DNA of 64,000 bases from a virus, in IMG/VR virus record IMGVR_UViG_3300045988_126562. One strand, given 5' to 3'. Both the position numbers and the translations under genes were made by a program. Positions 3,491 through 19,976 of this stretch are shown here, one piece after another. The notes under the pieces are model-generated. The model had not been told where the DNA came from. It saw only the letters and a program-made list of their open reading frames with translations, and searched no databases. Each line of letters starts with the position of its first letter. Within the stretch, counting starts at the first letter, position 1.

Positions 3491-5346
3491 TGAGTCAATA
3501 TAGTGAGGTAATTGGTAGTTTTTTAAGGAGAGGTAGCTTCCCATTAGAAGCTGATTACGTATTTAAAACGGAGGAAGCCTTAAGAAATTATTACAACCAA
3601 CCAGAAAATAAAGCCATACTTCATAAAGGTTTACTAAAAATCGTAGAAGATGATGGTTCTGGAGTACAGAGCCTTTACTGGGTAGTAGGAGAAGCTGATG
3701 GAACTTTAACTTTTTCTAAACTAATAACAAGTAAAGGTATAGGGGATTTAGAAAGTCAATTAAAAGAACTTTCTGAAAAACTGGAAAAAGAAATACAAGA
3801 TAGAAAAGATGCCGATGAAGCTATATGGGGAACTAATGATCCTACTAATATTCCGAATGATTTAAATAGTATCTTAGATTTATCTAATGCAATATTAGAG
3901 TTAAGAGAAAAAATTTCAGGAATAGAAGAAAGTCAAACCCAAATGAAGGATGAGATAATGGCTCTAGCTGGAACTACTTCACGAGACGTCATTGAGTATT
4001 TAAATACTTTAGATTATCCTTCATTAACTAAAGTATCTGAGAAATTAAATGAATTTTTCAATACTGAAAACCCAGAAAGTGAGGAAATTGATACATGGGT
4101 AGAATTAAAGAAATTCTTAAAAGGAATAACTGATGATACTACATTATCTTCCTTACTTGAAGAATATCTAAATAAAATATATGGAGATCCCCTGCCCTCT
4201 AAAGAGTTTTTAACTTTAAGGGAGATAGAAGATTTCGTAATAGAATTAAAATCTAATGTAGAGTATTCTATTAAAAACATACAGAAAGAAATAAATGATA
4301 CTCAAGTAGGAGTGGGATTGGATAGTGATGGAAAATTTAGTCCTGATCAAGAAACCAATTATCTTAAAGATGCTACTTCTGTAATGAATGCTCTAAAAAC
4401 TCTAGATTTTAAAATAAAGGATATATCCATAGATAAAGCTTTAGAAACAGAAAATCAAGATGTAGTAAAATTAGATATACGTAAAGAGCTAGAAAGAACT
4501 TTCATAAATGCCTATTTAGAATTATCATCTATAGATGGTAATGGACTTAAAAAGCAAGCAGATGGATTATATATGAAAGTTACTTCAGAATATAATAATG
4601 GAGTACTTACCTTAAAAATTAATGACTCTGTAGTAGCTCAACACGTATTAGGTATATCTTCTATTGTAGAGGATGCTTATTATGATTCACCAAATGAGGA
4701 AATAGTAATAGTATTCAAATTACTAGACGGGAATAAACAAACTATACATATTCCAGTAGGAAGCCTTATAAGAGAGTGGATAGTTGACAATTCCGGACCT
4801 AGTGATACAGTTATTCTTACTAGAATAGAAGATTTAACAGCTGGTCCTGATAAACTTTCTGCTGATGTTAGACTATATGTAGATAAGTATAATATCCTAG
4901 TAAAACAAGGAAATTCTCTTTATGTAAGAGGTACTTCTGATAATATAGTGCATAATGATGTAAAAGTCAGTGAAATATTGGAGGAACTAAAGGAAAAATC
5001 AGAATCTAGTTCTGATGAAATTTCTAAAGTGAAAGAGGATATAAAAGATATTCAAACTTCAGTTTCACAGGCTCAGAAGGATATAGATAATTTAGAATCT
5101 AGGGTAGAAAAAGTAGAGGATAATATCTCTAATACAAATAATAAATTATCTGAACATATCTTAAATTCTAATAATCCTCATAGAGTAACTAAGGATCAAG
5201 TAGGTTTAGGAAAGGTAGAAAATTTATCACCTTCAGATATGCCAATATCAAATGCTACTCAAAAAGCATTAGATTCTAAAGCAGATCTAGTTGATGGAAA
5301 AGTTCCATCAGAACAATTACCAGAATTATCTTGGATTGAAGTATGA
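3490..5346 (+). CDS. tail fibre protein (coiled-coil shaft, conserved fibre C-terminal motif)
   Basis: Start overlaps the upstream stop (TAATG). Long coiled-coil regions. The C-terminal NPHRVTKDQVGLGKVENLSPSDMPISNATQKALDSKADL matches the widespread phage-fibre motif (VGLGNVDN..KPIS..tq.AL). Confidence 0.7.
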   Translation: MSQYSEVIGSFLRRGSFPLEADYVFKTEEALRNYYNQPENKAILHKGLLKIVEDDGSGVQSLYWVVGEADGTLTFSKLITSKGIGDLESQLKELSEKLEKEIQDRKDADEAIWGTNDPTNIPNDLNSILDLSNAILELREKISGIEESQTQMKDEIMALAGTTSRDVIEYLNTLDYPSLTKVSEKLNEFFNTENPESEEIDTWVELKKFLKGITDDTTLSSLLEEYLNKIYGDPLPSKEFLTLREIEDFVIELKSNVEYSIKNIQKEINDTQVGVGLDSDGKFSPDQETNYLKDATSVMNALKTLDFKIKDISIDKALETENQDVVKLDIRKELERTFINAYLELSSIDGNGLKKQADGLYMKVTSEYNNGVLTLKINDSVVAQHVLGISSIVEDAYYDSPNEEIVIVFKLLDGNKQTIHIPVGSLIREWIVDNSGPSDTVILTRIEDLTAGPDKLSADVRLYVDKYNILVKQGNSLYVRGTSDNIVHNDVKVSEILEELKEKSESSSDEISKVKEDIKDIQTSVSQAQKDIDNLESRVEKVEDNISNTNNKLSEHILNSNNPHRVTKDQVGLGKVENLSPSDMPISNATQKALDSKADLVDGKVPSEQLPELSWIEV

Positions 5347-7145
5347 CACAAGTGATTAGACAGAAGCCTCCCAGACCAGCTAATATGAGTCAGTTAGACT
5401 ATTTATGGACATATTTTGGAGGATACAGTGTATCAGAAGAGGCTTCTACTATTCCTCAAAATGATGTCATTTTAACTGAATCTGCTATAACTAAGTTAAT
5501 TAGTACGTCTGCTGGAGGAGGAATAGTAAAATTAATTTATAGAAATCATCCTACTAATGCAGACTTGATTCAGTTAGTAGGAGCTAATATAGATGGAACA
5601 GAGATAACAGTAGTAGATATGCCAAAAGAGGTACACGTTACCAACTTTGGGTCTAGCGTAGTAACATCTGAAGATATAGATAAAGGATGCCCATTTCCTA
5701 TAGGAACAAATGTTATAGCATTAGTACTAAGTAATGATAAAAGGTTTTACTTTAACTTAGATGCTTATATAGTAGGAAGTGGAATATCTGGAGTAGATAC
5801 TAATACTATTAGGACTAAGGTAGTTAATGGAATTATATCATCTGATCTGAAAATAAAATCTACAAATAATGTAGTAGAAATAAATTCAGATAAAGATGGA
5901 ATATTTGCAGACCTAAAAATCAGCAGCCAAAATACTGGGGTAGTTATAGAAAAACAAAATGATGGTATATCTGCAAAGATCCCATTAAATAATTCCCAGT
6001 ATTTTATAAGATTTCAACAGCTTACTTTATTAGCTTATATGAATATTGAGAACAAAGATCCAGGAATGGTTTATTTCATAACTGATAAGCCTTACATTTA
6101 CTTGGGTGATAAGAGGTATGGAGTAGATATAAATCCAGGAGAAGTTCCAATAGTTTCATTAGTATATGATGCAGATCATATGTTGCTTTCCTATAAGAAA
6201 GCTGATGGCAGTGATATACAACAAATACATATGGGGCCAGTTACAGAAGAAATGCCTGGTATGCTTTCTTCTGAGGATTATGCTGAATTTAAAAAATTTA
6301 GTGAAGCTCTAGAAGGGATTCCTGATGTAAAGGAATATGTTAAACAAGAAACTGATAAACTGGCTATATCTATAGAATATGGTAATCCTGAAAATAACAG
6401 AAGACCACTATATTTAAAGAATAGACTAGGAGAAACACTAAGTACAGTTTGGATAGATGTAGATAATTTCTTAGTAGCGTCCAAAAATAAAATAGCTACT
6501 CAACAGGATGTGGAGGATGCTGAGGCTACTGGAGTGACCAATATTAATGTAGGGGATCAGATACTTATTCAGACTTTAATGAATGGAGATAAAGTTTACA
6601 CTAATTTGAAAGAATTAGTAGACGACTTTGAAGTAGGAAGAACTAAAACCATAACTCTTTCCAAATCTAAAGATAACGTAGTGTATGCTGACTTAAATAT
6701 AATAGACAGCAAAATATTATATGTAACATCTGATGGAGTAGGAGCTAATGCACAGGCATACAGAGAAGGAGGATATATTACTTTATATGGTAAAACTAAA
6801 ACTCAAGACTGTATACTAGGAAAATGGGAAGCTCCGCAAATGGAATTAATAAAAGGAGAGTTTATACCAGAGTACTCGGAAGAATTACTGGTTAGTCCTC
6901 TTTATTTAGATTGGAAAGAATATAATCAGTTTACTAACGCTCCAATAATAGGAAACCCATATTATGCGTTAACATATAAAGAATATACTGATAATCCCTC
7001 AAATATATTATATAGATATTATTGGATTTCCATTAAACCTTTACTTGATAAGGTAGGAATATCTAAAATAGAAGGAAATTTAATAAAAAAAGATAATAAT
7101 AATAACTTATACGCTCTGTTAGAGTGGTCTAATATAACTAATTAA
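5343..7145 (+). CDS. fibre/structural protein
   Basis: 600-aa ORF with an ATGA stop-start overlap upstream and a TAATG overlap downstream. Beta-rich composition, embedded in the fibre gene train. Confidence 0.5.
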   Translation: MTQVIRQKPPRPANMSQLDYLWTYFGGYSVSEEASTIPQNDVILTESAITKLISTSAGGGIVKLIYRNHPTNADLIQLVGANIDGTEITVVDMPKEVHVTNFGSSVVTSEDIDKGCPFPIGTNVIALVLSNDKRFYFNLDAYIVGSGISGVDTNTIRTKVVNGIISSDLKIKSTNNVVEINSDKDGIFADLKISSQNTGVVIEKQNDGISAKIPLNNSQYFIRFQQLTLLAYMNIENKDPGMVYFITDKPYIYLGDKRYGVDINPGEVPIVSLVYDADHMLLSYKKADGSDIQQIHMGPVTEEMPGMLSSEDYAEFKKFSEALEGIPDVKEYVKQETDKLAISIEYGNPENNRRPLYLKNRLGETLSTVWIDVDNFLVASKNKIATQQDVEDAEATGVTNINVGDQILIQTLMNGDKVYTNLKELVDDFEVGRTKTITLSKSKDNVVYADLNIIDSKILYVTSDGVGANAQAYREGGYITLYGKTKTQDCILGKWEAPQMELIKGEFIPEYSEELLVSPLYLDWKEYNQFTNAPIIGNPYYALTYKEYTDNPSNILYRYYWISIKPLLDKVGISKIEGNLIKKDNNNNLYALLEWSNITN

Positions 7146-9185: not shown

Positions 9186-11627
9186 ATGGCGATTAATAAG
9201 AAATTAATTCACTTTAAGCTTAAGTCTACTTTCGAGTCAGAACTTGAAGCTGGTAATATCCTAGATACTTCCATAGTATTTATACAGGATGCCAATTTAA
9301 TATGGACTCATGGAACTTACTATTGTTTGCCTAAAGATGAGGTATTAATTTCTGAAGGAATTGAACCTACTGATGGACAAGAAATCTGGATAGACTTATC
9401 AGAAGATTCAACTGTCTTTGCAGTAGAAGAAGCTCCAAAGGATGGAAAACAATATGTAAGAGAAAATGGAAAATGGGTTGAAATTCCAATTACAGATTTA
9501 TCAAACTATCTAGCCAAAGATAATACAGAAGAATATACACCTACTTCTAACTATAACCCCGCTACGAAAAAGTATGTGGATGATAATAAGGGAGTAGAAG
9601 AAGCACCTAATGATGGTAAAGCATATATCAGAAAAAATGAATCTTGGGTAGAACATCAAGAACAAGAAGTATATGTAGGTACTACTGAACCATCAATTGA
9701 TTGCGATATTTGGATTAACCCAGAAGACGGAACCATGAAATATAAAAAGGAAGATGGTTCATGGGAGGAAATAGCTGGAGGAGGTGGAATTGGAGAAATT
9801 ACTGAAACAGTAAAAGTAAGTCTTACTTCCAATCAGTCTAATCCCAATTCAGATCTTACTGGTGTAGAAATTACAGTAGAATGTTCAGGTCTTACTAAAA
9901 AGGCTAATTGGGAAGGATCTGAACTTACTTTTAATATTCCACATTCTACAGAATACACAATTAAAGCAGCAGCTGTAGAAGGATATTCTACTCCAGCTGA
10001 TCAATCATTCACAGCAGTTATGGGAGAAACAAGAAATGTATCTGTAGTGTATAATACCACTATAGTGACTGTAAATAAAGCATGTAACCAAACTTCTGGA
10101 TTGGGAGCATCATGTACTGCTGTGGTAAAGTATGATAACACACAAAAGACGCTAAGTTTTAGTAACGCTGATACTAGCAAAACTATTAAGATCCCAACTG
10201 GTAAAAGTTATACTATAACATTTTCAGCTGTAGAAGGATATAAAACTCCTGAAGTTATTTCACAACAAGCTTCTGGAGCTTCTCAATCAGTTACTGGTAC
10301 TTACAAAGCAGAAGTAGTGACTATAACAGTAACTACTAGTGATAGTACTTCTGCCAATGGACAGAAAGTGACTGTAACAATATCAAGTACTCCTACAGAA
10401 TATACTTGGAATGGAGAAGCTATAGTGCTTAAAGTTCCTTTTGACTCTTCTTATTCTGTAGCAGCTGATCAAAAAGCTAATTACTCTACTCCAGCTACAC
10501 AATCATATACAGCTGATAGGGTAAATAGAGATATTACTCTCAATTATGTGTATGCTCCAGCAATAGGTACTATATTCAAAGATTCAGATGGAGCTAATAC
10601 ATTAGAGCAAAATGGAGGAACTGATACCAGCTGGATTAAAGGTAAAAGATGCTTAGTTAAAAAGACTAGCAGTGGAGTGGCTATTTGTTACTTAGATGAA
10701 AATAATTCAGAATTATTCCATGATGGAACTACTGCTGCCAGTTTGGATGGAAGTATGGGACAATGGATGACAGATGTACCTGAATATTATTTCAATGTAG
10801 ACGAATCTACATCCGGAGTTCATGCTTTACAAGTATCGCAATTCCAGCAAGATGGATGGAAACAATCTAGGAGAGTATTAGTAGGAGTAACTGAAGCTGT
10901 AAATGTTAGCAATAAATTATGGTCTAAAAAGGGAGGACAATCTACTGGAAGTTTAACTTCTGTAGTATTTCATAATTATGCTACAGCATTAGGAAGTGGA
11001 TTCGACATTATTGATTATGAAACTCACTGCAAAATAGCTCATTTATTCTATGCTAAATATGCTAACAGGAATCCACAAGAAATGAGTCAATTCGGATATG
11101 GAGAAAATTCATATATCAGAACTATTGGTACTACATCCTCATTAGGTAATAATGATGGAAAAACTTCTACTCAAATTAGTTTCTTAGGTATAGAAGATTT
11201 CTACGGAGGTAAGTATGAATGGATGAGTGGAATACATTCTAATGGCTCTATTTACTATATTTACGATGGATTTGAACCAGATGCAGTTCCTACCGCTAGT
11301 TATCGTACAGTAGATATAGGTGGGTCAGCTAGAAGTGGATATATAAGTAAAGTATATTGGGGCGAACATGGGGATATGATTCCTACAGAAGTAAGTGCTT
11401 CCTCTACTACACATTACTGTGACTGGGGCATTGTGGCTCGTTCTGGTTGGCGTGTTGCTAGGCGCTCTAATAGTTCTACCTATGATAATGGCGGCGTCGC
11501 TTATTTCTATGCTGCTAGTGATTCTGGCGGTTCTGATGCCGCTATCGGCTCTCGCATCCAATATAGAGGGTCTATACAAGTTATAGAAGATCCTGTTGAA
11601 TTTAAATCATTACCAGTAGGATTTTAA
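9186..11627 (+). CDS. DGR target protein: tail fibre / receptor-binding protein with a C-terminal variable region
   Basis: I prefer the ATG at 9186, because the track's TTG start at 9144 lies inside the terminator palindrome. Fibre-like N-terminus. Three ~85-aa beta-sandwich-like repeats (..AVEGYSTPADQSF.., ..AVEGYKTPEVISQ.., ..QKANYSTPATQSY..). The last ~70 codons contain the VR that matches the downstream TR. Confidence 0.85.
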   Translation: MAINKKLIHFKLKSTFESELEAGNILDTSIVFIQDANLIWTHGTYYCLPKDEVLISEGIEPTDGQEIWIDLSEDSTVFAVEEAPKDGKQYVRENGKWVEIPITDLSNYLAKDNTEEYTPTSNYNPATKKYVDDNKGVEEAPNDGKAYIRKNESWVEHQEQEVYVGTTEPSIDCDIWINPEDGTMKYKKEDGSWEEIAGGGGIGEITETVKVSLTSNQSNPNSDLTGVEITVECSGLTKKANWEGSELTFNIPHSTEYTIKAAAVEGYSTPADQSFTAVMGETRNVSVVYNTTIVTVNKACNQTSGLGASCTAVVKYDNTQKTLSFSNADTSKTIKIPTGKSYTITFSAVEGYKTPEVISQQASGASQSVTGTYKAEVVTITVTTSDSTSANGQKVTVTISSTPTEYTWNGEAIVLKVPFDSSYSVAADQKANYSTPATQSYTADRVNRDITLNYVYAPAIGTIFKDSDGANTLEQNGGTDTSWIKGKRCLVKKTSSGVAICYLDENNSELFHDGTTAASLDGSMGQWMTDVPEYYFNVDESTSGVHALQVSQFQQDGWKQSRRVLVGVTEAVNVSNKLWSKKGGQSTGSLTSVVFHNYATALGSGFDIIDYETHCKIAHLFYAKYANRNPQEMSQFGYGENSYIRTIGTTSSLGNNDGKTSTQISFLGIEDFYGGKYEWMSGIHSNGSIYYIYDGFEPDAVPTASYRTVDIGGSARSGYISKVYWGEHGDMIPTEVSASSTTHYCDWGIVARSGWRVARRSNSSTYDNGGVAYFYAASDSGGSDAAIGSRIQYRGSIQVIEDPVEFKSLPVGF
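11421..11557 (+). repeat. DGR variable repeat (VR)
   Basis: Aligns to 11688-11824 at a constant offset of 267 nt with no indels. In the part I counted (VR 11424-11557 vs TR 11691-11824, 134 positions) about 29 of 31 mismatches fall where the TR has A. Encodes WGIVARSGWRVARRSNSSTYDNGGVAYFYAASDSGGSDAAIGSR. Confidence 0.85.
11562..11576 (+). promoter_or_regulatory. short hairpin immediately 3' of the VR (candidate DGR target-recognition hairpin)
   Basis: tataga-ggg-tctata forms a 6-bp stem with a 3-nt loop. It begins 5 nt after VR/TR homology ends. Confidence 0.4.
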
Positions 11628-11687
11628 ATAAATAGATTAACAGGTCTGCCCGAAGCTAATGTAGGTAACATCCTCTGTTAAAATAAA

Positions 11688-11824
11688 AAACAGAGCAATG
11701 TAGCTAATTCTAGTTGGCATGTTACTATACGCTCTAATAATTCTACCAATGATAATAGCAGCGTCACTTATTTCAATGCTAATAATGATTCTAGCAATTC
11801 TAATACCAATATCAGCTCTCACAA
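11688..11824 (+). repeat. DGR template repeat (TR), non-coding
   Basis: Lies in the 326-nt gap between the target stop (11627) and the RT start. Read in the VR frame it is rich in AAT/AGC/ACT codons (..SNVANSSWHVTIRSNNSTNDNSSVTYFNANNDSSNSNTNISSH..). The 5' boundary is uncertain and may extend to about 11681 through an A-run. Confidence 0.85.
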
Positions 11825-11953
11825 TATTGTTCATTTTTTTTTCACTTTGTATTTTAGTAGGGCTGCACCTTGCCTCTTGGCAAAAGATAGAATGCATTTT
11901 TTAAAAAGTATGGTAGCTGATTAGCGAAGTGCTTTATTGCAACAATAGTGCTT

Positions 11954-13183
11954 ATGAAAAGAATAAATGGTTTATTTGATAAAATATGTACAGAAGAAAA
12001 TATACTCTTAGCTTACAGAAATGCTACTAGAGGTAAGAAACACTACAAAGATGTAATAGCTTTCAATAAAGATTTAAAAAATAATTTGAAAACTCTTCTA
12101 ATAGAGTTAAAAACACTAACTTATAGAACATCTCCATACTATATATTTAATCTAAAGACTGGAGGCAAAGTTAGAGAAATTTATAAACTTCCCATAAGAG
12201 ATAGAATAGCACAACATGCTCTTATGAATTATATGGAACCAATATTTAGAAAATCTTTTATAGTAGACACATATTCATCTACTAAAGAAAGAGGAATCCA
12301 TATGGGATTAAGGAGGTTAACTAAGGCATTAAAGGATAAAAAAAATACTGTATACTGTTTAAAATTAGATATACATAAATTTTATCCTTCCATTAATCAA
12401 GAACTTATGAAAGCTGCACTAGCCCGTAAGTTTAAAGATAAAAGACTTTTGATAATACTAGAAGAAATAATAGACTCCACTGATAAAGGAGTCCCTATTG
12501 GAAATTATACTTCTCAATATTTTGCTAATTTCTTTTTAACTCCAATGGATCACTGGATAAAAGAAGTTCTAAGAGTTAAATACTATTTTAGATATTGTGG
12601 TGATATAGTTATATTAGGTCCAACAAAAGAATATCTATGGAACATATTTCATAAGATACAGGACTATTTAAAGGATATACAATTAGAATTGAAACCAAAC
12701 TGGCAGGTATTTCCAGTAGAATCTAGAAGTGTAGACTTTTTAGGATACAAATCTAGGCATGAATATATACTTGTTAGAAAATATATCAAAAAGAACTTTA
12801 TTAATAAACTAAGACAGAGCAATACATTTGAATCCAAAAGAAATATTTTAGGCTCATATTGGGGGATTTTTTGTCATGCAAACTGTCGTAATCTATGGAG
12901 AACATATACCGGAATGAGAACCTTCAAGGATTTAGGAATTGAAGTTAAAACCCGTGTTAGAGTACCTGACATAGTAGATAAGATTATAATAATTAATAGC
13001 ATGAAAGTCAAGTTTAAAAGAGGTAATAAATGTGTTGATATTTCAGCTACTTATGAAGATAGAGAGATTAAGTTTACTACATTTGCTGAAATGATTATTG
13101 AAGCAGCTGAGCAGATTAGTAACTCAGATTTACCTTTTGAAACTAAGATAATATCAGAAAATGGATTTTACAAATTTGAATAA
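11954..13183 (+). CDS. DGR-type reverse transcriptase
   Basis: RT motifs are present: LKLDIHKFYPSI (motif A); PIGNYTSQYFANFFL (the DGR-specific GxxxSQ motif B); FRYCGDIVILG (motif C, non-canonical YCGD); LELKPNWQVFPV..VDFLGY (motifs D/E). I prefer the ATG at 11954 over the track's GTG at 11948. Confidence 0.9.
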   Translation: MKRINGLFDKICTEENILLAYRNATRGKKHYKDVIAFNKDLKNNLKTLLIELKTLTYRTSPYYIFNLKTGGKVREIYKLPIRDRIAQHALMNYMEPIFRKSFIVDTYSSTKERGIHMGLRRLTKALKDKKNTVYCLKLDIHKFYPSINQELMKAALARKFKDKRLLIILEEIIDSTDKGVPIGNYTSQYFANFFLTPMDHWIKEVLRVKYYFRYCGDIVILGPTKEYLWNIFHKIQDYLKDIQLELKPNWQVFPVESRSVDFLGYKSRHEYILVRKYIKKNFINKLRQSNTFESKRNILGSYWGIFCHANCRNLWRTYTGMRTFKDLGIEVKTRVRVPDIVDKIIIINSMKVKFKRGNKCVDISATYEDREIKFTTFAEMIIEAAEQISNSDLPFETKIISENGFYKFE

Positions 13184-13184
13184 C

Positions 13185-14156
13185 ATGAGAATATTAAAAG
13201 CAAGTAGCACTTTAAAACCTCAACTGCTTGAATACATTGGTTCTGGTTCTTGGAGAGTTAGATGGAATATATCTAAAGAACAAAAGGAAGAAGCAGAATT
13301 ATATGAGTATGTAGAAGCAGAATTAGGATATAAAGCTGCTATTGAAGAATTAAAAACCATAGTAGTAAACTGGGTAAGAGATAACTTCCAACCTAATTCT
13401 TTTTATATAGATGGACATAAGTATTGGGCATCTGATGCAGAAAGAGCAACTATTAAGTCTCAATGCGAGTCTGATGCAGAAAATTCTACTATTTCTCTTA
13501 CTTGTGATGATTCTATAATTACTTTAAAAGCTCAGTCAGTATTACGAGTAATGATGATGATAGATAATTATAGTATCAAATATAAAAAAGTAGTAGAAAC
13601 TTTAGTAAACGAAATTAATCAATGTTCTACTATAGAAGAAATAAATGAGTTGAATTTTAAATTAGAATTGCCAGAAGAAGTTCATACTACTCAGGTGGAA
13701 TTAGGAAGATTAACAAGTAACAGACAAAAAAACTCTAAAGAGAATCAAGCTATACTATTTGCTAAAATGACTATAAATGCAACTCCACTCACTGATAACC
13801 AAGCTATTAGTGTAAAGAACTTGCACCCTGAGTGGAAGGAATTTATAGGTAAATCTTTATCTACTGGATTTAGAGTTTTGCATGAAGATGCTTTATACAA
13901 AGTAAGGCAAGATATTAGTGTAGTGTTAGAAAATCAACCCCCATCTATAGATACTGCTGCATTGTATGAAGAAATTAATGAAACTCATGATGGGACAAAG
14001 ACAGACCCAATACCATACAACAACAATATGGCTTTAGAATTAGGAAAATATTACATCCAAGATGATATTATATATATGTGTACTAGAGATACAGGTCAAG
14101 CAGTCTATCAAGATTTATCTGACTTAGTAGGAATTTATGTACAAATAGCAGAATAA
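13185..14156 (+). CDS. hypothetical protein, paralogue 1 (shared C-terminal ~125-aa domain, possibly carbohydrate-binding)
   Basis: ATG at 13185 lies 1 nt after the RT stop; an alternative ATG at 13161 overlaps the RT. The C-terminal region FAKMTINATPLTDNQAISVKNLHPEWKEFIG...LVGIYVQIAE is closely similar to the next gene. The W..F.G..V.....LYKV.Q...PS pattern loosely resembles CBM5/12-type modules. Confidence 0.55.
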   Translation: MRILKASSTLKPQLLEYIGSGSWRVRWNISKEQKEEAELYEYVEAELGYKAAIEELKTIVVNWVRDNFQPNSFYIDGHKYWASDAERATIKSQCESDAENSTISLTCDDSIITLKAQSVLRVMMMIDNYSIKYKKVVETLVNEINQCSTIEEINELNFKLELPEEVHTTQVELGRLTSNRQKNSKENQAILFAKMTINATPLTDNQAISVKNLHPEWKEFIGKSLSTGFRVLHEDALYKVRQDISVVLENQPPSIDTAALYEEINETHDGTKTDPIPYNNNMALELGKYYIQDDIIYMCTRDTGQAVYQDLSDLVGIYVQIAE

Positions 14157-14159
14157 AAT

Positions 14160-14717
14160 ATGGCAGTAATTAAATATAAAAATCCGAAATACACAGAGGG
14201 TGGTTCAGAACCTAAGTATATAGTTATTCCTACATTAACTATGGAAAATAATGGATTGACTAAATATAAAAATGGAGAATCCTGGGAAGATTTGGTTCCA
14301 GAAATGCAATTAATGTCATTTGCTAAAATGGCTGTAAATACTATGAGCCTTACAGATGAACAGGCTTTAAGTGTTAAATTACTTCATCCAGAATGGGAAG
14401 AATTCATAGGAGGATCTCTATCAGCAGGAGAAAGGGTTATGTATGATGATAAGCTATACAAAGTAAAACAAGAGATAAACCCAGTACTAGAAAATCAGCC
14501 TCCATCTATAGAGACAGCAGCTCTATACGAAGAGATAAATGAAAAACATGCTGGTACTAAAGAAGATCCAATTCCATTCAATAATAATATGGAATTAGAA
14601 CTTGGTAAGTACTATTCTCAAAATGGAGTAACTTATATGTGTTTCAGAGATTCACAACAACCAGTTTATCAGAATTTAGCTGATTTAGTTGGAATCTATG
14701 TACAAATAGCTGAGTAA
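14160..14717 (+). CDS. hypothetical protein, paralogue 2 (same C-terminal domain)
   Basis: FAKMAVNTMSLTDEQALSVKLLHPEWEEFIG...LVGIYVQIAE. Its last six residues (YVQIAE) are identical to those of the upstream gene. Confidence 0.6.
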   Translation: MAVIKYKNPKYTEGGSEPKYIVIPTLTMENNGLTKYKNGESWEDLVPEMQLMSFAKMAVNTMSLTDEQALSVKLLHPEWEEFIGGSLSAGERVMYDDKLYKVKQEINPVLENQPPSIETAALYEEINEKHAGTKEDPIPFNNNMELELGKYYSQNGVTYMCFRDSQQPVYQNLADLVGIYVQIAE

Positions 14718-14723
14718 TAATAG

Positions 14724-14767
14724 AAAGATAGCTGTACGAGTATAACCTTGTATGGCTATCTTTTTTA
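14724..14767 (+). terminator. rho-independent terminator
   Basis: aaagatagc (14724-14732) pairs with gctatcttt (14755-14763). An inner stem tacgag/cttgta contains one G-U pair. The hairpin runs into a T6 tract. Confidence 0.7.
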
Positions 14768-14779
14768 GTTTTAATAATT

Positions 14780-15520
14780 ATGTTGAGAAAAAGAACTTTA
14801 TGAAATAAAAAGAAATCTACATATACAGTATATTCCAATTGTAATGGAGGTTCTGTATATTTTAATAATAATTTAGTAGGTACTATATCTTCTGGCAAAT
14901 TGATAGTGGAATTATCTGGAGCAGATTCATATACAGTGAAGATAGAGGGAGGGGTCCCAAGTACGTCAACTAGTACTTCTGAATCTACTGATTCTGGCAG
15001 TGATACTAGTAATGAATATTCTCCCTCTGGAGAACTAAGAGGAGGAGGAACATTTTGGCCATCAGAAGGCACTCTGGCAATACAGGCATCAGCATCTCTT
15101 ACAGTTATGAGAAATACTTATACTCAACCATATACAAGACCAAAATATACTAGTTATCAAACTACTTATTCTGCTCCTGGAACTGGAAATATAGATGCTA
15201 ATGGTTCTGTTACTTTAAATTATACGAGTAGAACTACTGAAACAGGAGTTACATATGGAGATAAAACTTTACAATCTAGTACTGATGTTACCCCTAAAAG
15301 TGGATCTACCTCTACTGGATGGGTAATATACGAAGGATATAGATGGGATAGAACTAATACAGCACAATCAGTAGGAGATATATCACTCATTGATCACAGT
15401 GTTACTGGATTCACTAAAGGAAGTACAGCTTCTGGAGTTGATAGATCATACATATTACTAAATTATACTACTACAGATAATGGTTATAATGGATCTTTAT
15501 CAGTATTTTTTAACCTATGA
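14780..15520 (+). CDS. fibre-cassette member A, interrupted by an in-frame TGA at codon 8 (possible pseudogene, readthrough or truncated product)
   Basis: ATG at 14780 gives MLRKRTL, then TGA (14801-14803). The same frame continues open as NKKKSTYTVYSNCNGGSVYFNNNLVGTISSGKL into the track ORF 14900..15520, which starts at a TTG. The region upstream of 14900 aligns with the N-terminus of the 17335 gene. Confidence 0.5.
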
Positions 15521-15536
15521 TGAAAATATTTAATTC

Positions 15537-15546
15537 GGGGGGGGGG
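15537..15546 (+). repeat. intergenic G10 homopolymer
   Basis: Counted directly: cGGGGGGGGGGc. It lies 40 nt upstream of the ATG at 15586 and is followed by cttacaatCCC. Confidence 0.95.
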
Positions 15547-15572
15547 CTTACAATCCCTTAATTGTAAAGATA

Positions 15573-15580
15573 AAGGAGGT
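15573..15580 (+). promoter_or_regulatory. canonical Shine-Dalgarno (AAGGAGGT)
   Basis: aaggaggt lies 5 nt upstream of the ATG at 15586. Confidence 0.7.
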
Positions 15581-15585
15581 GAATC

Positions 15586-16425
15586 ATGAGAAGAAGAACT
15601 CTTGGGTCTAAGAAATTAGTAGATAAAGAGATAAGATTTACCTCATCTACTAGTTGGACTATACCAGCTGGATGTAAATCAATAGATATATTTTTAGTAG
15701 GCGGTGGAGGAGCCGGGGGAAATTGGGTAACTTGGGGCTATACTTCAGGAGGACCTGGAAGTGGAGGTGGAACTAACACAGTCAAAAACATCTCTGTAAT
15801 ATCGGGTCAGTCAGTTTCTATTTCTATTGGAGCAGGAGGATCTTCTGTAAGTTCCGATGGATCTCCCTCTACCTTAACAGTTAATAATAACACATATACT
15901 GCTCCAGGAGGAAATGGAGGACCTCAATCTAGAAACGGATTACCTAATGATGATCCATACAATTATTGTTATGTAACGTGTGCAGCTAGTCCAGCTAACA
16001 ACGGAATATATAGAAACTCAGGGATAATAGGAGTGGGTAAAAATGATGGTACTACTATAGAATATGTAAAAGATGACAGAAATGTAGAGTTAGACTCTTA
16101 TGATAGGTCTATTTATGGTACAAATTCTAGTACTACTGGAGACAATCCTTATCGCTATAGAACTGGTGTACCAGAATTTTGGGAGGATGATAAACCTCTT
16201 CATGCAGCCGGAGGTTCTAATAGTCAATCTTTACAAATAATATCTGATTTCACAGAAGGATCTGGAGAAACTGTTACTAGACATTACAATAGTGGTGATA
16301 ATGGTATCCAACGTGGCGGAGGAGGATATGGAGGTGGGGGAGCAGGAGTAACATATAGCTCTTCCAAATCATTTAGTTCTGGAGGTAGTGGTATAGTAAT
16401 AATACGATATAAAGCTTATGAATAA
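15586..16425 (+). CDS. fibre-cassette member B: glycine-rich domain protein
   Basis: N-terminus MRRRTLGSKKL. The layout ..WTIPAGCKSIDIFLVGGGGAGG.. followed by GG-rich blocks and ending GGSGIVIIRYKAYE matches the phage/bacterial glycine-rich domain family. Confidence 0.75.
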   Translation: MRRRTLGSKKLVDKEIRFTSSTSWTIPAGCKSIDIFLVGGGGAGGNWVTWGYTSGGPGSGGGTNTVKNISVISGQSVSISIGAGGSSVSSDGSPSTLTVNNNTYTAPGGNGGPQSRNGLPNDDPYNYCYVTCAASPANNGIYRNSGIIGVGKNDGTTIEYVKDDRNVELDSYDRSIYGTNSSTTGDNPYRYRTGVPEFWEDDKPLHAAGGSNSQSLQIISDFTEGSGETVTRHYNSGDNGIQRGGGGYGGGGAGVTYSSSKSFSSGGSGIVIIRYKAYE

Positions 16426-16434
16426 TTTAATTTT

Positions 16435-16442
16435 GGGGGGGG
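16435..16442 (+). repeat. intergenic G8 homopolymer
   Basis: ttttGGGGGGGGact, followed by actacttCCC. It lies 45 nt upstream of the ATG at 16487. Confidence 0.95.
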
Positions 16443-16474
16443 ACTACTTCCCTAATTACTGACATACTTACCGA

Positions 16475-16482
16475 AAGGAGGT
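16475..16482 (+). promoter_or_regulatory. canonical Shine-Dalgarno (AAGGAGGT)
   Basis: aaggaggt lies 4 nt upstream of the ATG at 16487. Confidence 0.7.
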
Positions 16483-16486
16483 TAGT

Positions 16487-17269
16487 ATGTTAAGAAGAAG
16501 TATTAATAATAAAAGAGAGAAACAATTATTTATTAAGAGATTTTATCCTGCTGGCATATATACTTGGACTGTTCCTGCTGGATGCGAAGAAGTTGATGTA
16601 TTCCTTGTTGGAGGAGGTGGAGGCAGTGGAAACGGTTCAGGAGCGGGAAGTGGGTATACCAAAACATTTAAAAAGGATTCCATAGGAGTAAAACAAGGAA
16701 ACCAAGTTTCAGTTGTTCCAGGTCAATCTATCGAGATTATAGTAGGAAAAGGAGGAGAAGGGTTATATCATGGGTATCCAGACACAGGAGGATATTCTCA
16801 ATTTATGAACTCTAATTATAGAGCTAATGGAGGAAACCCTTCAGGCAATGGACTACTTAATGGAGAAAATTCAACTGGAGGTCCTTATACTGGTGGGAAT
16901 GGTGGTAGTGGAGGATCTGTAGATCAATTAGGAGATGAATTTTATGCTGGATCAGATGGATCTGATGCACCTGGAATAACGGATGACAATGGAGTATATC
17001 ATCAACCTGGAACAAAATATGGAGGAGGAAAAGGTCAAGGATATACAACTAGAGATTTCGGTGAACCAACAGGTAAAAGAAATGCTGGTGGCGGAGGAGC
17101 TGATAGAAATAGAGATAATGGAAATGGAGGCGAATCTGATTATGATGAAGGATGTGGTACTGGTCGAGGTACTAGAAAAAGTGGAGGATATGGCGGAGGA
17201 GGTTGCGGCTCCTATGGAACTGGAGGAGATGGAACAGTGCTAATTAGATATTATGCTTATAAAGAATAA
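16487..17269 (+). CDS. fibre-cassette member C: glycine-rich domain protein
   Basis: N-terminus MLRRSINNKREKQL. ..WTVPAGCEEVDVFLVGGGGGSGNGSGAGSG.. and a C-terminus GGDGTVLIRYYAYKE make it a paralogue of the previous gene. Confidence 0.75.
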   Translation: MLRRSINNKREKQLFIKRFYPAGIYTWTVPAGCEEVDVFLVGGGGGSGNGSGAGSGYTKTFKKDSIGVKQGNQVSVVPGQSIEIIVGKGGEGLYHGYPDTGGYSQFMNSNYRANGGNPSGNGLLNGENSTGGPYTGGNGGSGGSVDQLGDEFYAGSDGSDAPGITDDNGVYHQPGTKYGGGKGQGYTTRDFGEPTGKRNAGGGGADRNRDNGNGGESDYDEGCGTGRGTRKSGGYGGGGCGSYGTGGDGTVLIRYYAYKE

Positions 17270-17294
17270 ATTAACCACAATGATGATAAATAGA

Positions 17295-17303
17295 GGGGGG
17301 GGG
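17295..17303 (+). repeat. intergenic G9 homopolymer
   Basis: tagaGGGGGGGGGcat, followed by catcaataagactCCC. It lies 32 nt upstream of the ATG at 17335. Confidence 0.95.
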
Positions 17304-17334
17304 CATCAATAAGACTCCCAACAAAAAATATTTT

Positions 17335-17997
17335 ATGTTAAGAAGATGTTTAGGAAGTAAAAAATTAGAATATACTCTTAATACAAATCAGGGTACACCT
17401 GATGTTTATGTAAATGGAGTATATAAAGGTACTGTAAGTAATGGAGTTTGTAAGTGGAAAGATTCCGAATATAAAACTGATGTAACAATTACCCTTCAAA
17501 ATTGTACAGCAGGCAATACTTATCAATCTAGTCAAAATGCAGATGCATGGATCTCTGTAGATGGAGGAACTCCATATTATGATACACAATTTAAGAAAAT
17601 AACATATACTGAAGAAGGATCACATACTGTACAAGCATTATGGGGAACAGCTTACTATAATAATGTACAAAGTATAAATAGTACTGGAACTTTAAAAGCA
17701 GGAAATACTTCTTTAACTATGAATTATAATGTATCATCCTCTTATTTAAGATTTGAACAAAGAAGCGACTCCTTACCAGTTACTTGGGAATATAGCGGAG
17801 AAGATCAATCTTCCAATCATTGGAATGAAAAACTATGCACATTTAGTTCTTCTGGAGATACTTTATATTTTACCATAGATAATAACACTGGAGAAACTTG
17901 GGCTTCGGGATCATATGAAGCATGCGCTGTACCCAATGAAACAGGCTTACATACTGCCTATGTAGATGTAATCTTAAAAAATATAAGAAATTACTAA
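17335..17997 (+). CDS. fibre-cassette member D (shares N-terminal leader and first domain with member A)
   Basis: MLRRCLGSKKLEYTLNTNQGTPDVYVNGVYKGTVSNG aligns with member A's MLRKRTL*NKKKSTYTVYSNCNGGSVYFNNNLVGTISSG. Confidence 0.65.
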   Translation: MLRRCLGSKKLEYTLNTNQGTPDVYVNGVYKGTVSNGVCKWKDSEYKTDVTITLQNCTAGNTYQSSQNADAWISVDGGTPYYDTQFKKITYTEEGSHTVQALWGTAYYNNVQSINSTGTLKAGNTSLTMNYNVSSSYLRFEQRSDSLPVTWEYSGEDQSSNHWNEKLCTFSSSGDTLYFTIDNNTGETWASGSYEACAVPNETGLHTAYVDVILKNIRNY

Positions 17998-18086: not shown

Positions 18087-18159
18087 TTTTGTCGTACCTT
18101 TAAATGAGAAAGTAGTGATACTTTATTCATTTCTGTAATGTGCAATTTTCACGACAAAA
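18087..18159 (+). promoter_or_regulatory. 9-bp inverted repeat pair enclosing a small hairpin, in a 240-nt intergenic region
   Basis: ttttgtcgt (18087-18095) is the reverse complement of acgacaaaa (18151-18159). An inner hairpin aaagta-gtga-tacttt lies at 18109-18124. The palindrome ttacgcgtaa (18176-18185) follows. Confidence 0.35.
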
Positions 18160-18237
18160 TTAGAGAAATTTATTTTTACGCGTAAGATTTATTATCTCTT
18201 TAGATTTTTTGATAAATTTTAATTTTTATTTATTATC

Positions 18238-19065
18238 ATGGCAGAATTTTTAACAATGGAAGAAGCCGAAGATAAATTCGGTAAGAAAGGTACGGCTAGA
18301 GCAGGTTTAACACTGGGTATCATTGGTACAGCTCTTGCAGCTCTTGGTAACAACAATGGATGTGGTTGTGGAGGCAATGGCATTCTTGGTGGACTATTTG
18401 GAGGAAACAACAACGGTTGTGCTATGCAAGCAGCTGAACAAGCTAAAACATTAGCTATGGCTCAGGGACAAATGGCTGATAACTTATCTTGGGCTAACAG
18501 AGTTCAGTCTTTACAAGATGATGTAGATTTATATACTTATATAAATGCTACTAATCAGAAACTTGGAAATGAAGTACAGGTTTTAACTAATCAAATCTGG
18601 AATGACAGAGTACAAGATTTAAAAGACAAGAGCGGAATGTATGTTGATCTTCTAACTAGAGACAATGCACAGAATCTTAGATTATGTGATGAACTTTATA
18701 AGAGGAGAGAACAAGATGTTCAAGAAAAAACAGACATTTTTGAAAGATTGAGTACTAGAATCAATGAACTTGAAAAGAGAGAAGCCGCTACTAGTGCTGC
18801 TATTCCTCTGATGTTTGAACTTACTCAGGTTAAGGCTAACAAGTACACTGACGACTGCTGCTGCAAGGCTGAAAAACAGAATCTTATTTCTGATGCTTAT
18901 CTACAAAGGCAAATAGATCATAAGATAGACGGAGAATTAAAATATGCTTATAGTAATTTATGCGCTCCTGTTCCAAGTATCTCTCCTTTGTATTGCACAC
19001 CTTTCACTTCAGTTGGTAGTGGAACTACTTGGACTGGTTGCTGCGGGTCTAACCAAAACTTATAA
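18238..19065 (+). CDS. hypothetical coiled-coil protein with a hydrophobic Gly/Cys-rich N-terminus and a C-terminal Cys cluster
   Basis: AGLTLGIIGTALAALGNNNGCGCGGNGILGGLFGGNNNGC, then predicted coiled coil, then DDCCCKAE and ..TWTGCCGSNQNL at the end. Confidence 0.55.
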   Translation: MAEFLTMEEAEDKFGKKGTARAGLTLGIIGTALAALGNNNGCGCGGNGILGGLFGGNNNGCAMQAAEQAKTLAMAQGQMADNLSWANRVQSLQDDVDLYTYINATNQKLGNEVQVLTNQIWNDRVQDLKDKSGMYVDLLTRDNAQNLRLCDELYKRREQDVQEKTDIFERLSTRINELEKREAATSAAIPLMFELTQVKANKYTDDCCCKAEKQNLISDAYLQRQIDHKIDGELKYAYSNLCAPVPSISPLYCTPFTSVGSGTTWTGCCGSNQNL

Positions 19066-19073
19066 TAATAAAC

Positions 19074-19529
19074 ATGGCTTGTAACTGTTGCAATAACAGG
19101 AGACGCTCAACGCCTGGTTATACCCTTGTAGAAAATAGTACAGCTCAAACATGGGCTGCTACTGGAGGATTATTACAGCCTGGATTTGTTTTAGAACATT
19201 CCAGTGCTGATAATATCTCCATTTCTGGAAGCTCGTTATCTGTTGAAAATACTGGAACTTACTACATAGATGTTAAAGTAACTGGTACTCCAGCTACAGC
19301 ATCTGCAACAGTAATTCCAACTATTAATATAAACGGGATTCCTGTAGCCAGCGATCCTAGAACTGGAGGAGCCACTCCTATAGTAGAGGAATTTGGAGTA
19401 AGAACCATAGAGTTCTTAAAGAAAGGAGATATAATTACTATTTCTAACACTGGAGCTTCTGCATTAACAATAACAGGAGTTACTTCTCCAGGATATAATG
19501 TTAGTATAGTTATAGAAAGATTTAATTGA
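19074..19529 (+). CDS. small C1q/TNF-like (BclA C-terminal-domain-like) jelly-roll protein with an N-terminal Cys cluster
   Basis: MACNCCNNRRRS is followed by ..ENTGTYYIDVKVTG..ININGIPVAS..KKGDIITISNTG..SIVIERFN. This matches the TG.Y.I...vNG.pv...i.IE+ pattern of BclA-CTD/C1q knobs. Confidence 0.5.
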   Translation: MACNCCNNRRRSTPGYTLVENSTAQTWAATGGLLQPGFVLEHSSADNISISGSSLSVENTGTYYIDVKVTGTPATASATVIPTININGIPVASDPRTGGATPIVEEFGVRTIEFLKKGDIITISNTGASALTITGVTSPGYNVSIVIERFN

Positions 19530-19544
19530 TAAAGCTAAAGAGTA

Positions 19545-19976
19545 ATGTTTGAAAACCCTTTCGGAACTAATCTTCAAGATTTACAACAGAACTATTATCA
19601 ACAGTTAGCTGCAATGCAGCAGATGCAACAAAAACAAGGTAGTAGTTCTATCTTAGAAGAAATAAATAAGGTTGTTTCCGGTATGAGTTCTGACGAACAA
19701 GCAATGATGTCAGAATCTCCAGAATATATCATGGCAAAACAAACTTATGAAGCAGGATTTATGGGATTCTTAGGTCAAAAATTCTCTCAAGAATATGTGA
19801 ATACTCAAGAGGGGAAAACTGCTGCAAATAATCTTCTTAACTCAATTAAGAGGATTAAGGATAAAGTAAGTGAGGATTTAAAAGCCAAACAAAAGAAAGT
19901 TGATGAGCTAATTCACTTACTTGAAAATGACCCAGAACTAAAGAAGAGATATGAAGAATTATCAATTGGCAAATAG
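19545..19976 (+). CDS. hypothetical protein (Q-rich N-terminus)
   Basis: 143-aa ORF ending in TAG, with no recognisable family. Confidence 0.5.
   Translation: MFENPFGTNLQDLQQNYYQQLAAMQQMQQKQGSSSILEEINKVVSGMSSDEQAMMSESPEYIMAKQTYEAGFMGFLGQKFSQEYVNTQEGKTAANNLLNSIKRIKDKVSEDLKAKQKKVDELIHLLENDPELKKRYEELSIGK

Follow-up and report, generated by a model that had tools for sequence, protein, structure and literature searches.

Overlapping stop and start codons (ATGA or TGATG) provide translational coupling in operons and in phage late genes, and homopolymers placed in promoter spacers, as in Neisseria porA/opc and Bordetella fim, modulate expression gradually through their length. Few viruses of the human gut are as abundant as the crAss-like phages, which have to keep up with hosts whose surfaces vary. 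We analysed three poly-G tracts located in the intergenic spacers of a fibre-like gene array of such a phage (IMG/VR record IMGVR_UViG_3300045988_126562), within a stretch of 64,000 nucleotides (nt) hereafter called the window, on whose scale the tract coordinates are given. Like the Neisseria and Bordetella poly-G or poly-C repeats, these tracts are intergenic and stand upstream of surface-protein genes, but that type of repeat has flanking -35 and -10 elements, none of which was found here at the right spacing (16-18 nt). As in ordinary ATGA coupling, one frame of a short leader open reading frame (ORF) ends on the next start codon, and relatives devoid of tract are directly ATGA-coupled; the difference lies in the hypermutable tract inside the coupling ORF, which would make the coupling itself switchable.

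Hypermutable polyG tracts have been reported in Campylobacter Fletchervirus phages (Sorensen et al. 2021, Cell Rep 35:109214; cited in 10.1101/2025.10.21.683753). That system resembles the present locus in having a phage G7-G11 tract at receptor-binding genes and mixed progeny, and differs in that the tract lies inside the receptor-binding gene, where frameshifts truncate the protein; here it is intergenic, in leader ORFs, and found in crAss-like and other gut phages. Contingency loci have also been described in coliphages T2 and T4 (Gomez, Barrick & Waters, bioRxiv 10.1101/2025.10.21.683753), in which, as here, short homopolymers slip and give reversible variants for bet-hedging. Those runs are mostly of at least 6 bases and lie within ORFs, and homopolymers are reported to be under-represented in tail-fibre genes (10.1101/2025.10.21.683753), whereas the G runs studied here are long, intergenic and concentrated at fibre-like cassettes. 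Lastly, the tlpB-hp0102 mRNA leader of Helicobacter pylori carries a variable G-repeat (G7-G16) that is targeted by the small RNA (sRNA) RepG and gives graded, not on/off, control (PMC8295292). The location of the repeat in a leader is common to both, but the tlpB system needs a C/U-rich sRNA, whereas here no partner was identified and the tract is in a translatable leader ORF. Our literature search retrieved no paper linking crAss-like phages with poly-G tracts, in agreement with an earlier reading of this DNA (the first-pass annotation) that knew of no crAss-like equivalent, and, within the limits of the literature covered, no description of a homopolymer inside a coupling leader ORF.

Tract position, length variation and leader reading frames

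The coordinates given by the first-pass annotation for the G10, G8 and G9 runs proved exact (Table 1). The third tract is indeed a G9, with the refinement that it reads G-A-G9 in the window and takes other forms in relatives. A homopolymer census of the window found no other G or C run of at least 7 nt; the longest G runs elsewhere are four G6 (also the greatest length that the first-pass annotation noticed inside genes), there is no C run of at least 6 nt, and G makes up 16.9% of the bases. In 100 dinucleotide-preserving shuffles of the window, G8 matched 0.12 times on average and the observed count was never reached; the three tracts are far beyond chance for the composition of the window. 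All of them lie between the stop and start codons of annotated genes and none inside the coding sequence of a receptor-binding gene. One tract is found in each of the spacers upstream of the ATGs at 15586, 16487 and 17335, which measure 65, 61 and 65 nt (about 65 nt in the first-pass annotation), and each precedes a gene starting M-x-R-R. The earlier description of a CCC 7-13 nt past the tract (8, 7 and 13 nt for tracts 1, 2 and 3) and of AATT...AATT around the first two units was also correct.

Table 1. Features of the tract-bearing array and its surroundings, in window coordinates
Feature	Coordinates	Strand	Description
Diversity-generating retroelement	9186-13183		directly upstream of the array
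Variable repeat of the retroelement	11428-11556		3' end of the gene for an 813-amino-acid (aa) tail protein
Template repeat of the retroelement	11695-11823		
Reverse transcriptase of the retroelement	11954-13183		
First gene of the cassette array (MLRKRTL...)	14780..15520	+	in-frame TGA at codon 8 (14801-14803); translation, comparison
Leader ORF 1	15517..15561	+	MMKIFNSGGGLTIP*; start codon overlaps the upstream gene's TGA stop as ATGA
Poly-G tract 1	15537..15546	+	G10; sequence inspection, homopolymer census
Strong Shine-Dalgarno sequence, Gly-rich cassette 1	15570-15585		AAAGGAGGTG
Gly-rich cassette 1	15586..16425	+	279 aa; Pfam Gly_rich_2; starts MRRRTLGSKK
Leader ORF 2	16418..16462	+	MNNLILGGDYFPNY*; starts inside the last codons of cassette 1; MNNLILGG...
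Poly-G tract 2	16435..16442	+	G8; sequence inspection, homopolymer census
Strong Shine-Dalgarno sequence, Gly-rich cassette 2	16470-16486		GAAAGGAGGT
Gly-rich cassette 2	16487..17269	+	260 aa; Gly_rich_2; starts MLRRSINNKR
Leader ORF 3	17253..17312	+	...MMINRGGGHQ*; ATG at 17253, or ATG ATG at 17280
Poly-G tract 3	17293..17303	+	G-A-G9; G9 proper 17295-17303
Cassette 3	17335..17997	+	220 aa; starts MLRRCLGSKK; no family match; without Shine-Dalgarno sequence

Tract lengths were compared among contigs that encode identical or 94-100% identical cassette proteins and whose flanks are otherwise identical. Tract 1 is G10 in the window, L001 and L274, G9 in L002, L003 and L004, and GGT+G10 in L171. 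Tract 2 is G8 in the window, L001, L003, L004 and L168/L169, G10 in L002, G11 in L274 and G13 in L171, while tract 3 reads GA+G9 in the window, G9 in L001, L002, L169 and L171, GA+G8 in L168, G10 in L274 and G6AG2 in L071 and L275. The first-pass annotation had seen in the three differing lengths the signature of a slippage-prone contingency locus and proposed a comparison with related genomes; that comparison revealed length polymorphism, both between these near-identical contigs and across hundreds of related ones, smoothly distributed around G9, and thus upholds its reading. The two assemblies of run ERR209465 (Logan, L168; ENA, L169) differ at tract 3, and contig ends fall at a tract in L003, L004, L132 and L169. 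Such disagreements and breaks may reflect heterogeneity within samples. We rejected a poly-G artefact of two-colour Illumina sequencing, since the tracts lie within contigs and reappear at homologous positions in data from many independent samples and assemblers.

Translation of the spacers brought out a point missed by the first-pass annotation, namely that each tract is embedded in a leader ORF. These ORFs have 10-20 codons and start at or near the stop codon of the previous gene, the tract encoding Gly-Gly-Gly. One length class (modulo 3) ends the leader on the next start codon, within ATGA or ATGTTAA, and the others stop earlier or fuse in frame. With G10, leader ORF 1 stops 27 nt before the ATG at 15586; with the G9 of L002-L004 it runs to a TGA that overlaps this ATG, in tcATGAga. 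Leader ORF 2 stops 27 nt before the ATG at 16487 with G8, at CCC TAA with G9, and with G7, G10 or G13 at the TAA inside ATGTTAA, overlapping the start. The window form of leader ORF 3 stops 25 nt before the ATG at 17335, the G9 and G6AG2 forms listed above end on the TAA of ATGTTAA, and the GA+G8 and G10 forms fuse the leader in frame to cassette 3 (a protein of 237 aa is called in L168). In practice, assemblies break or disagree at the tracts and gene callers alternately fuse or split leader and gene. Taken across the array, the window has three early-stop links and a nonsense codon in the first cassette; L001 shares the nonsense codon but has one coupled link beside two early-stop ones; all three links are coupled in L002; and L071 and L275 have an intact first gene and two coupled links, of which one is locked by an interrupted tract. 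These states look like array-wide on and off settings, but the strains are few and related and we did not count them as evidence.

Hundreds of contigs, belonging to several gut-phage lineages, have a tract of G7-G13 (mode 9; extremes 19 and 24) ahead of homologous or analogous genes. The IMG/VR homologues of cassette 2 fall into two groups. Those that are 83-86% identical (the 83% group) are on contigs of 100-150 kb with G7-G10 located 16 nt before the ATG; those that are 67% identical (the 67% group) are on contigs of higher G+C content, with tracts on both sides of the gene. In this second group the upstream tract is G7 in 2 contigs, G8 in 5, G9 in 19, G10 in 7 and G11 in 3, and the downstream tract G7 in 3, G8 in 9, G9 in 17, G10 in 7, G11 in 6 and G12 in 1. 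The IMG/VR scan with cassette 1 as query gave no match; the close IMG/VR relative lacks that gene. Pattern scans yielded 66 IMG/VR matches with G8 at 12-42 nt before ATGAGAAGAAGA against 2 at 43-73 nt, and 37 further sites with G8 at 12-42 nt before ATGTTAAGAAGA, mostly in gut-phage contigs of 80-190 kb. They uncovered the new families X, Y, Z and L251, in which the downstream genes encode Gly_rich_2, Laminin_G_3 (ConA-like lectin) or Lcl_C domains; with the tail-fibre PHROGs, these make up the host-interaction-type genes found behind tracts. Tract lengths are G8-G11 in family Z, and in family X G8 (8 loci), G9 (31), G10 (10) and G11 (2), plus one G19 and one G24. The two extreme lengths belong to L177 and one other family X locus, at a site whose mode is G9. 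The family X protein of L193 (377 aa) matches Gly_rich_2 in its first ~100 residues only and then resembles out-of-frame sequence, and there may be a second frameshift site inside this gene.

The tracts are G on the coding strand throughout, with the sole exception of the lineage L175, which has a C9. This C9 (1447-1455 of L175, a crAss-like contig with CrAss_Ring proteins) falls among the final codons of a Laminin_G_3 gene and is followed 56 nt later by a Gly_rich_2 gene. A C8 or C11 would lengthen the upstream gene by 54 nt, up to an ATGA overlap with the next gene, so that the logic of the arrangement would depend on frame and not on G. Some close relatives have neither spacer nor tract, the genes abutting as TAAattATG in L094 and others, and in the tract-less L172 like genes are directly coupled by an ATGA overlap, gaagaATGAGAAGAAGA. 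In L092 (at 16179), L098 (15928) and L099 (16270), a G9-G11 tract follows what looks like a decayed cassette start, a vestigial head (ATGAGAAGGAAAGTTAGCATA = MRRKVSI), ~150 nt upstream of another Gly-rich gene with a strong Shine-Dalgarno sequence.

The same leader design was found in families X, Y, Z and L251, in the 83% group and at both tracts of the 67% group, whose leader ORFs either carry AGGAGG or AGGAGA 7 nt upstream of their ATG or overlap the preceding stop as ATGA. Against composition-matched shuffles, two features stand out in the 14 spacer families: an ORF that starts with ATG and enters the tract (11 families, Poisson-binomial P = 2e-4), and an open frame that terminates on the downstream start (also 11 families, P = 1.4e-3). 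A conservative set of 11 families gave P = 3e-3 and 2e-3, respectively. Families Z, L251 and L272 were examined after the criteria had been fixed on the earlier ones, and two of these three present both features.

Switchable translational coupling as a proposed mechanism

At the level of sequence, these comparisons establish the hypermutability of the tracts, their anatomy, their conservation and the tract-mediated deletions described below, and we have little doubt that the tracts are maintained, hypermutable and tied to the cassettes. From the anatomy, the poly-C lineage and the ATGA overlaps that couple the genes directly in relatives without a tract, we further infer that the leader frame affects expression of the downstream gene. 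We propose that polymerase slippage alters the length of a tract and that this length, modulo 3, sets the frame of the leader. One frame would take ribosomes across the spacer to terminate on the next start codon, in ATGA or ATGTTAA; the other two would stop 25-27 nt upstream, read into the gene out of frame or fuse the leader to it. Each link would be switched independently, giving a mixed population with differing sets or amounts of host-binding proteins, and the same tracts would serve as microhomology for deleting or joining whole cassettes. The tracts probably let the phage vary at random the host-binding proteins that it makes. The mechanism as a whole, a contingency locus acting through switchable translational coupling and also used as a recombination joint, is put forward tentatively, as slightly short of probable. 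A broader picture is possible but rather doubtful: in widespread large crAss-like phages of the human gut, the tracts would form a coupling relay in which slippage connects, disconnects or fuses each next cassette, generating combinatorial fibre sets as a counter-move to phase variation of the host surface and providing joints for the loss of cassettes or their exchange between lineages. If tract length does control cassette expression, this would be a phage contingency system built on intergenic leader ORFs that leaves the gene unbroken, of which we found no report. The locus can be tested with existing metagenome reads and simple reporter constructs.

Several observations weigh against the coupling mechanism. 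Among the sampled contigs the coupled frame is not generally enriched: its share is 47% for the 83% group and 45-49% for the two 67% families, but 20% for X and 28% for Z. Most families have G9 as their modal length irrespective of the frame that it produces. A mode independent of frame fits a mutational equilibrium or a length-dependent, frame-blind mechanism such as promoter spacing. A modal G9 is also reported for Campylobacter jejuni (PMC3401435). Five variants with a right flank shortened by 1 nt (TAAATG) show no compensating tract length, and L174, L272 and the L161 variant right flank are without leader architecture. Each of cassettes 1 and 2 is preceded by its own strong Shine-Dalgarno sequence, in a genome that makes hardly any other use of them, so that dependence on coupling is uncertain. 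The leader ORF statistics are partly post hoc and come from families that are not fully independent, and short ORFs arise easily in AT-rich DNA. The effect of the leader frame is, moreover, read from sequence.

Recombination at the tracts and alternative explanations

Gene 15586-16425 is missing from three contigs in which a single tract remains: G7 in L071 (the same contig as L086) and in L275, G11 in L170. In each of them the left flank comes from spacer 1 and the right flank from spacer 2, and such hybrid flanks place the crossover inside the G run. The ENA assembly of run ERR321476, the source of L170, contains a 1,033-nt contig with exactly the missing gene, bounded by G9 and G8; together with the L170 junction, it indicates that both cassette forms were assembled from this run. 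Assembly collapse as the source of the hybrid junctions was rejected as unlikely, since these share no long k-mer. By these alignments the tracts are used as deletion joints, in keeping with the suggestion of the first-pass annotation that they could be linkers for cassette exchange, and an unrelated crAss-like group behaves alike. In that group (L024, L032, L036, L064-L066, L069, L072) two G7-G10 tracts are located at ~11340 and ~11423, 83 nt apart; L030 and L068 keep one tract with the outer flanks, which corresponds to an 83-nt tract-to-tract deletion relative to L024. The first of the two tracts begins at the TAG stop of a 306-aa ORF, and these loci have an unusually high G+C content of ~52%. 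The chimeric proteins P0015 and P0016 combine the N-terminus of cassette 1 with the body of cassette 2, and in L171 (3907-4104) cassette 2 is reduced to 65 aa.

The joint activity itself is real, but it is quite unlikely that the tracts are mainly recombination joints, that is, microhomology at cassette borders whose length variation is a side effect with no regulatory role. Such a role would account for hybrid junctions lying exactly in the tract, for the second, independent tract-to-tract deletion, for the tracts on both sides of the Gly-rich gene in the 67% group, for the chimeras P0015 and P0016 and for a patchy distribution with signs of horizontal transfer (Shine-Dalgarno sequences in the two Gly-rich genes only). 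However, other crossovers, namely those of P0015, P0016 and L105, took place in coding sequence, outside tracts, arrays without tracts exist, and the strand bias, the anatomy of the leader ORFs and the fixed short distance to the start codon are left unexplained. It is still less likely that the tracts are neutral, hitch-hiking hypermutable sequences without function, tolerated because they are non-coding. The absence of a consistently favoured frame and the interrupted tracts (G6AG2, GGT+G10, G7AG4) would agree with neutrality, but homopolymers of this length decay quickly unless maintained. These persist at homologous sites across lineages whose adjacent proteins share only 38-85% identity, and in independent spacer families, and they keep to the coding strand (one lineage having poly-C) and to the vicinity of the start codon.

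The main rival to switchable coupling is phase variation through a promoter spacer, the G run lying between the elements of an internal promoter in the intergenic spacer and its length tuning transcription; we consider it unlikely. A TA directly follows the tract in many families (TAAAAT, TAAACA, TATTTT, GATAAT) and is found at +1 in 5 of 11 (P = 0.004), TACAAT stands two nt after tract 1, and the 67% group has TTTACA-N9-G9-TAAACA, with a spacing of 18 nt. In the two-tract crAss-like group each tract lies between TTTG and TAnnTTTG, which we take to be the Bacteroidota -33 and -7 promoter motifs, and a modal G9 independent of frame fits a spacing optimum. Yet no TAnnTTTG occurs downstream of any window tract, and all but one of the five TA cases are TAA, which one leader frame reads as a stop. 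Only 3 of 11 families (P = 0.11) have a TAnnnT hexamer 0-2 nt from the tract, which is no enrichment, and a sigma-70 scan, outside which phage-specific promoters fall, detected no promoter spanning any window tract; the idea of a promoter across the tract, raised in the first-pass annotation, thus lost ground. Only 16-31 nt separate tract and ATG in X, Z and the 83% group, and promoter spacing leaves unexplained the leader ATGs, their Shine-Dalgarno sequences and the open coupling frames. An element acting at the RNA level, in which the G run pairs with the CCC or another pyrimidine stretch in a hairpin (attenuator or translation block) or is targeted by a C/U-rich sRNA, seems highly improbable. 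The CCC 7-13 nt downstream and the AT-rich palindromic flanks of spacers 1 and 2 had suggested G-run/CCC hairpins, L161 has G13AAAACCCCTTTT, and there is the precedent of the H. pylori tlpB leader and RepG (PMC8295292). When the three spacers were folded on both strands, spacer 2 folded modestly better than shuffles (z = -2.16) but spacers 1 and 3 did not (z = +0.35 and -0.56), no terminator was called at any tract, and a search of 14.5-18.3 kb gave no Rfam match at the spacers, results that speak against the hairpin suggestion. The downstream C-rich element is not conserved across families, L175 uses poly-C, and no distinctive C-rich partner was found, the window having no C run of at least 6 nt and pyrimidine stretches being too numerous to be informative.

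Genes and elements around the array

By sequence, the tracts belong to an array of four small fibre- or lectin-like genes with M-x-R-R heads, the fourth member being the gene upstream of tract 1. Codon 8 of this gene is GGA (Gly) in L071, L171 and L275, where the gene is intact and encodes about 246-251 aa; the TGA in its place in the window is a predicted strain-specific knock-out, and the same in-frame TGA is seen in L001 and L170. Recoding of stop codons was considered and rejected, since the standard code leaves the long genes intact and the upstream gene is closed by TGA TGA. Besides Pfam Gly_rich_2, cassettes 1 and 2 match tail-fibre or minor-tail families among the PHROGs; a PDB sequence search with cassettes 1 and 3 found no relatives. 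Among the 34 plus-strand genes of at least 100 aa in the window, the two Gly-rich genes are the only ones with a strong Shine-Dalgarno sequence, and spacer 2 is similar, in its right half, to the spacer found in the phage group of 67% identity (cggaaaggaggttggtATG). Together these features suggest that the cassettes and their spacers were acquired horizontally, the Gly-rich cassettes coming from a phage that uses Shine-Dalgarno sequences. The phage itself is crAss-like, as neighbouring genes on identical contigs (145-176 kb) match Crass_capsid. The closest catalogued phage in an INPHARED search was Culoivirus cr1_1 (L005), 67% identical over one gene, and no tract was found in its homologous region.

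Within 8 kb the locus combines three devices for diversification: the retroelement, the exchangeable cassettes headed by M-x-R-R and the hypermutable G tracts. The template and variable repeats of the retroelement are 79% identical, with mismatches within the repeat at template adenines. A link between the tracts and the neighbouring reverse transcriptase was rejected, both repeats being located at 11428-11823 and unrelated to the tracts. A terminator-like hairpin of 19 pairs followed by a T run (14722-14765) lies only ~14 nt before the ATG of the first cassette, too close for a conventional promoter to fit in between. The genes 13161-14156 and 14160-14717 are paralogous, sharing a 300-nt repeat at 70% identity and a match to phrog_30034. 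At the site of these paralogues L071 has ~2.3 kb of additional DNA (4044-6375), part of which aligns to the 300-nt repeat, indicating copy-number variation. Downstream of the array, a segment of 1.65 kb (18101-19757), comprising the genes 18238-19065 and 19074-19529 and the start of 19545-19976, is missing from the 98%-identical L071, and L001 and L002 also diverge from the window just before 19001.

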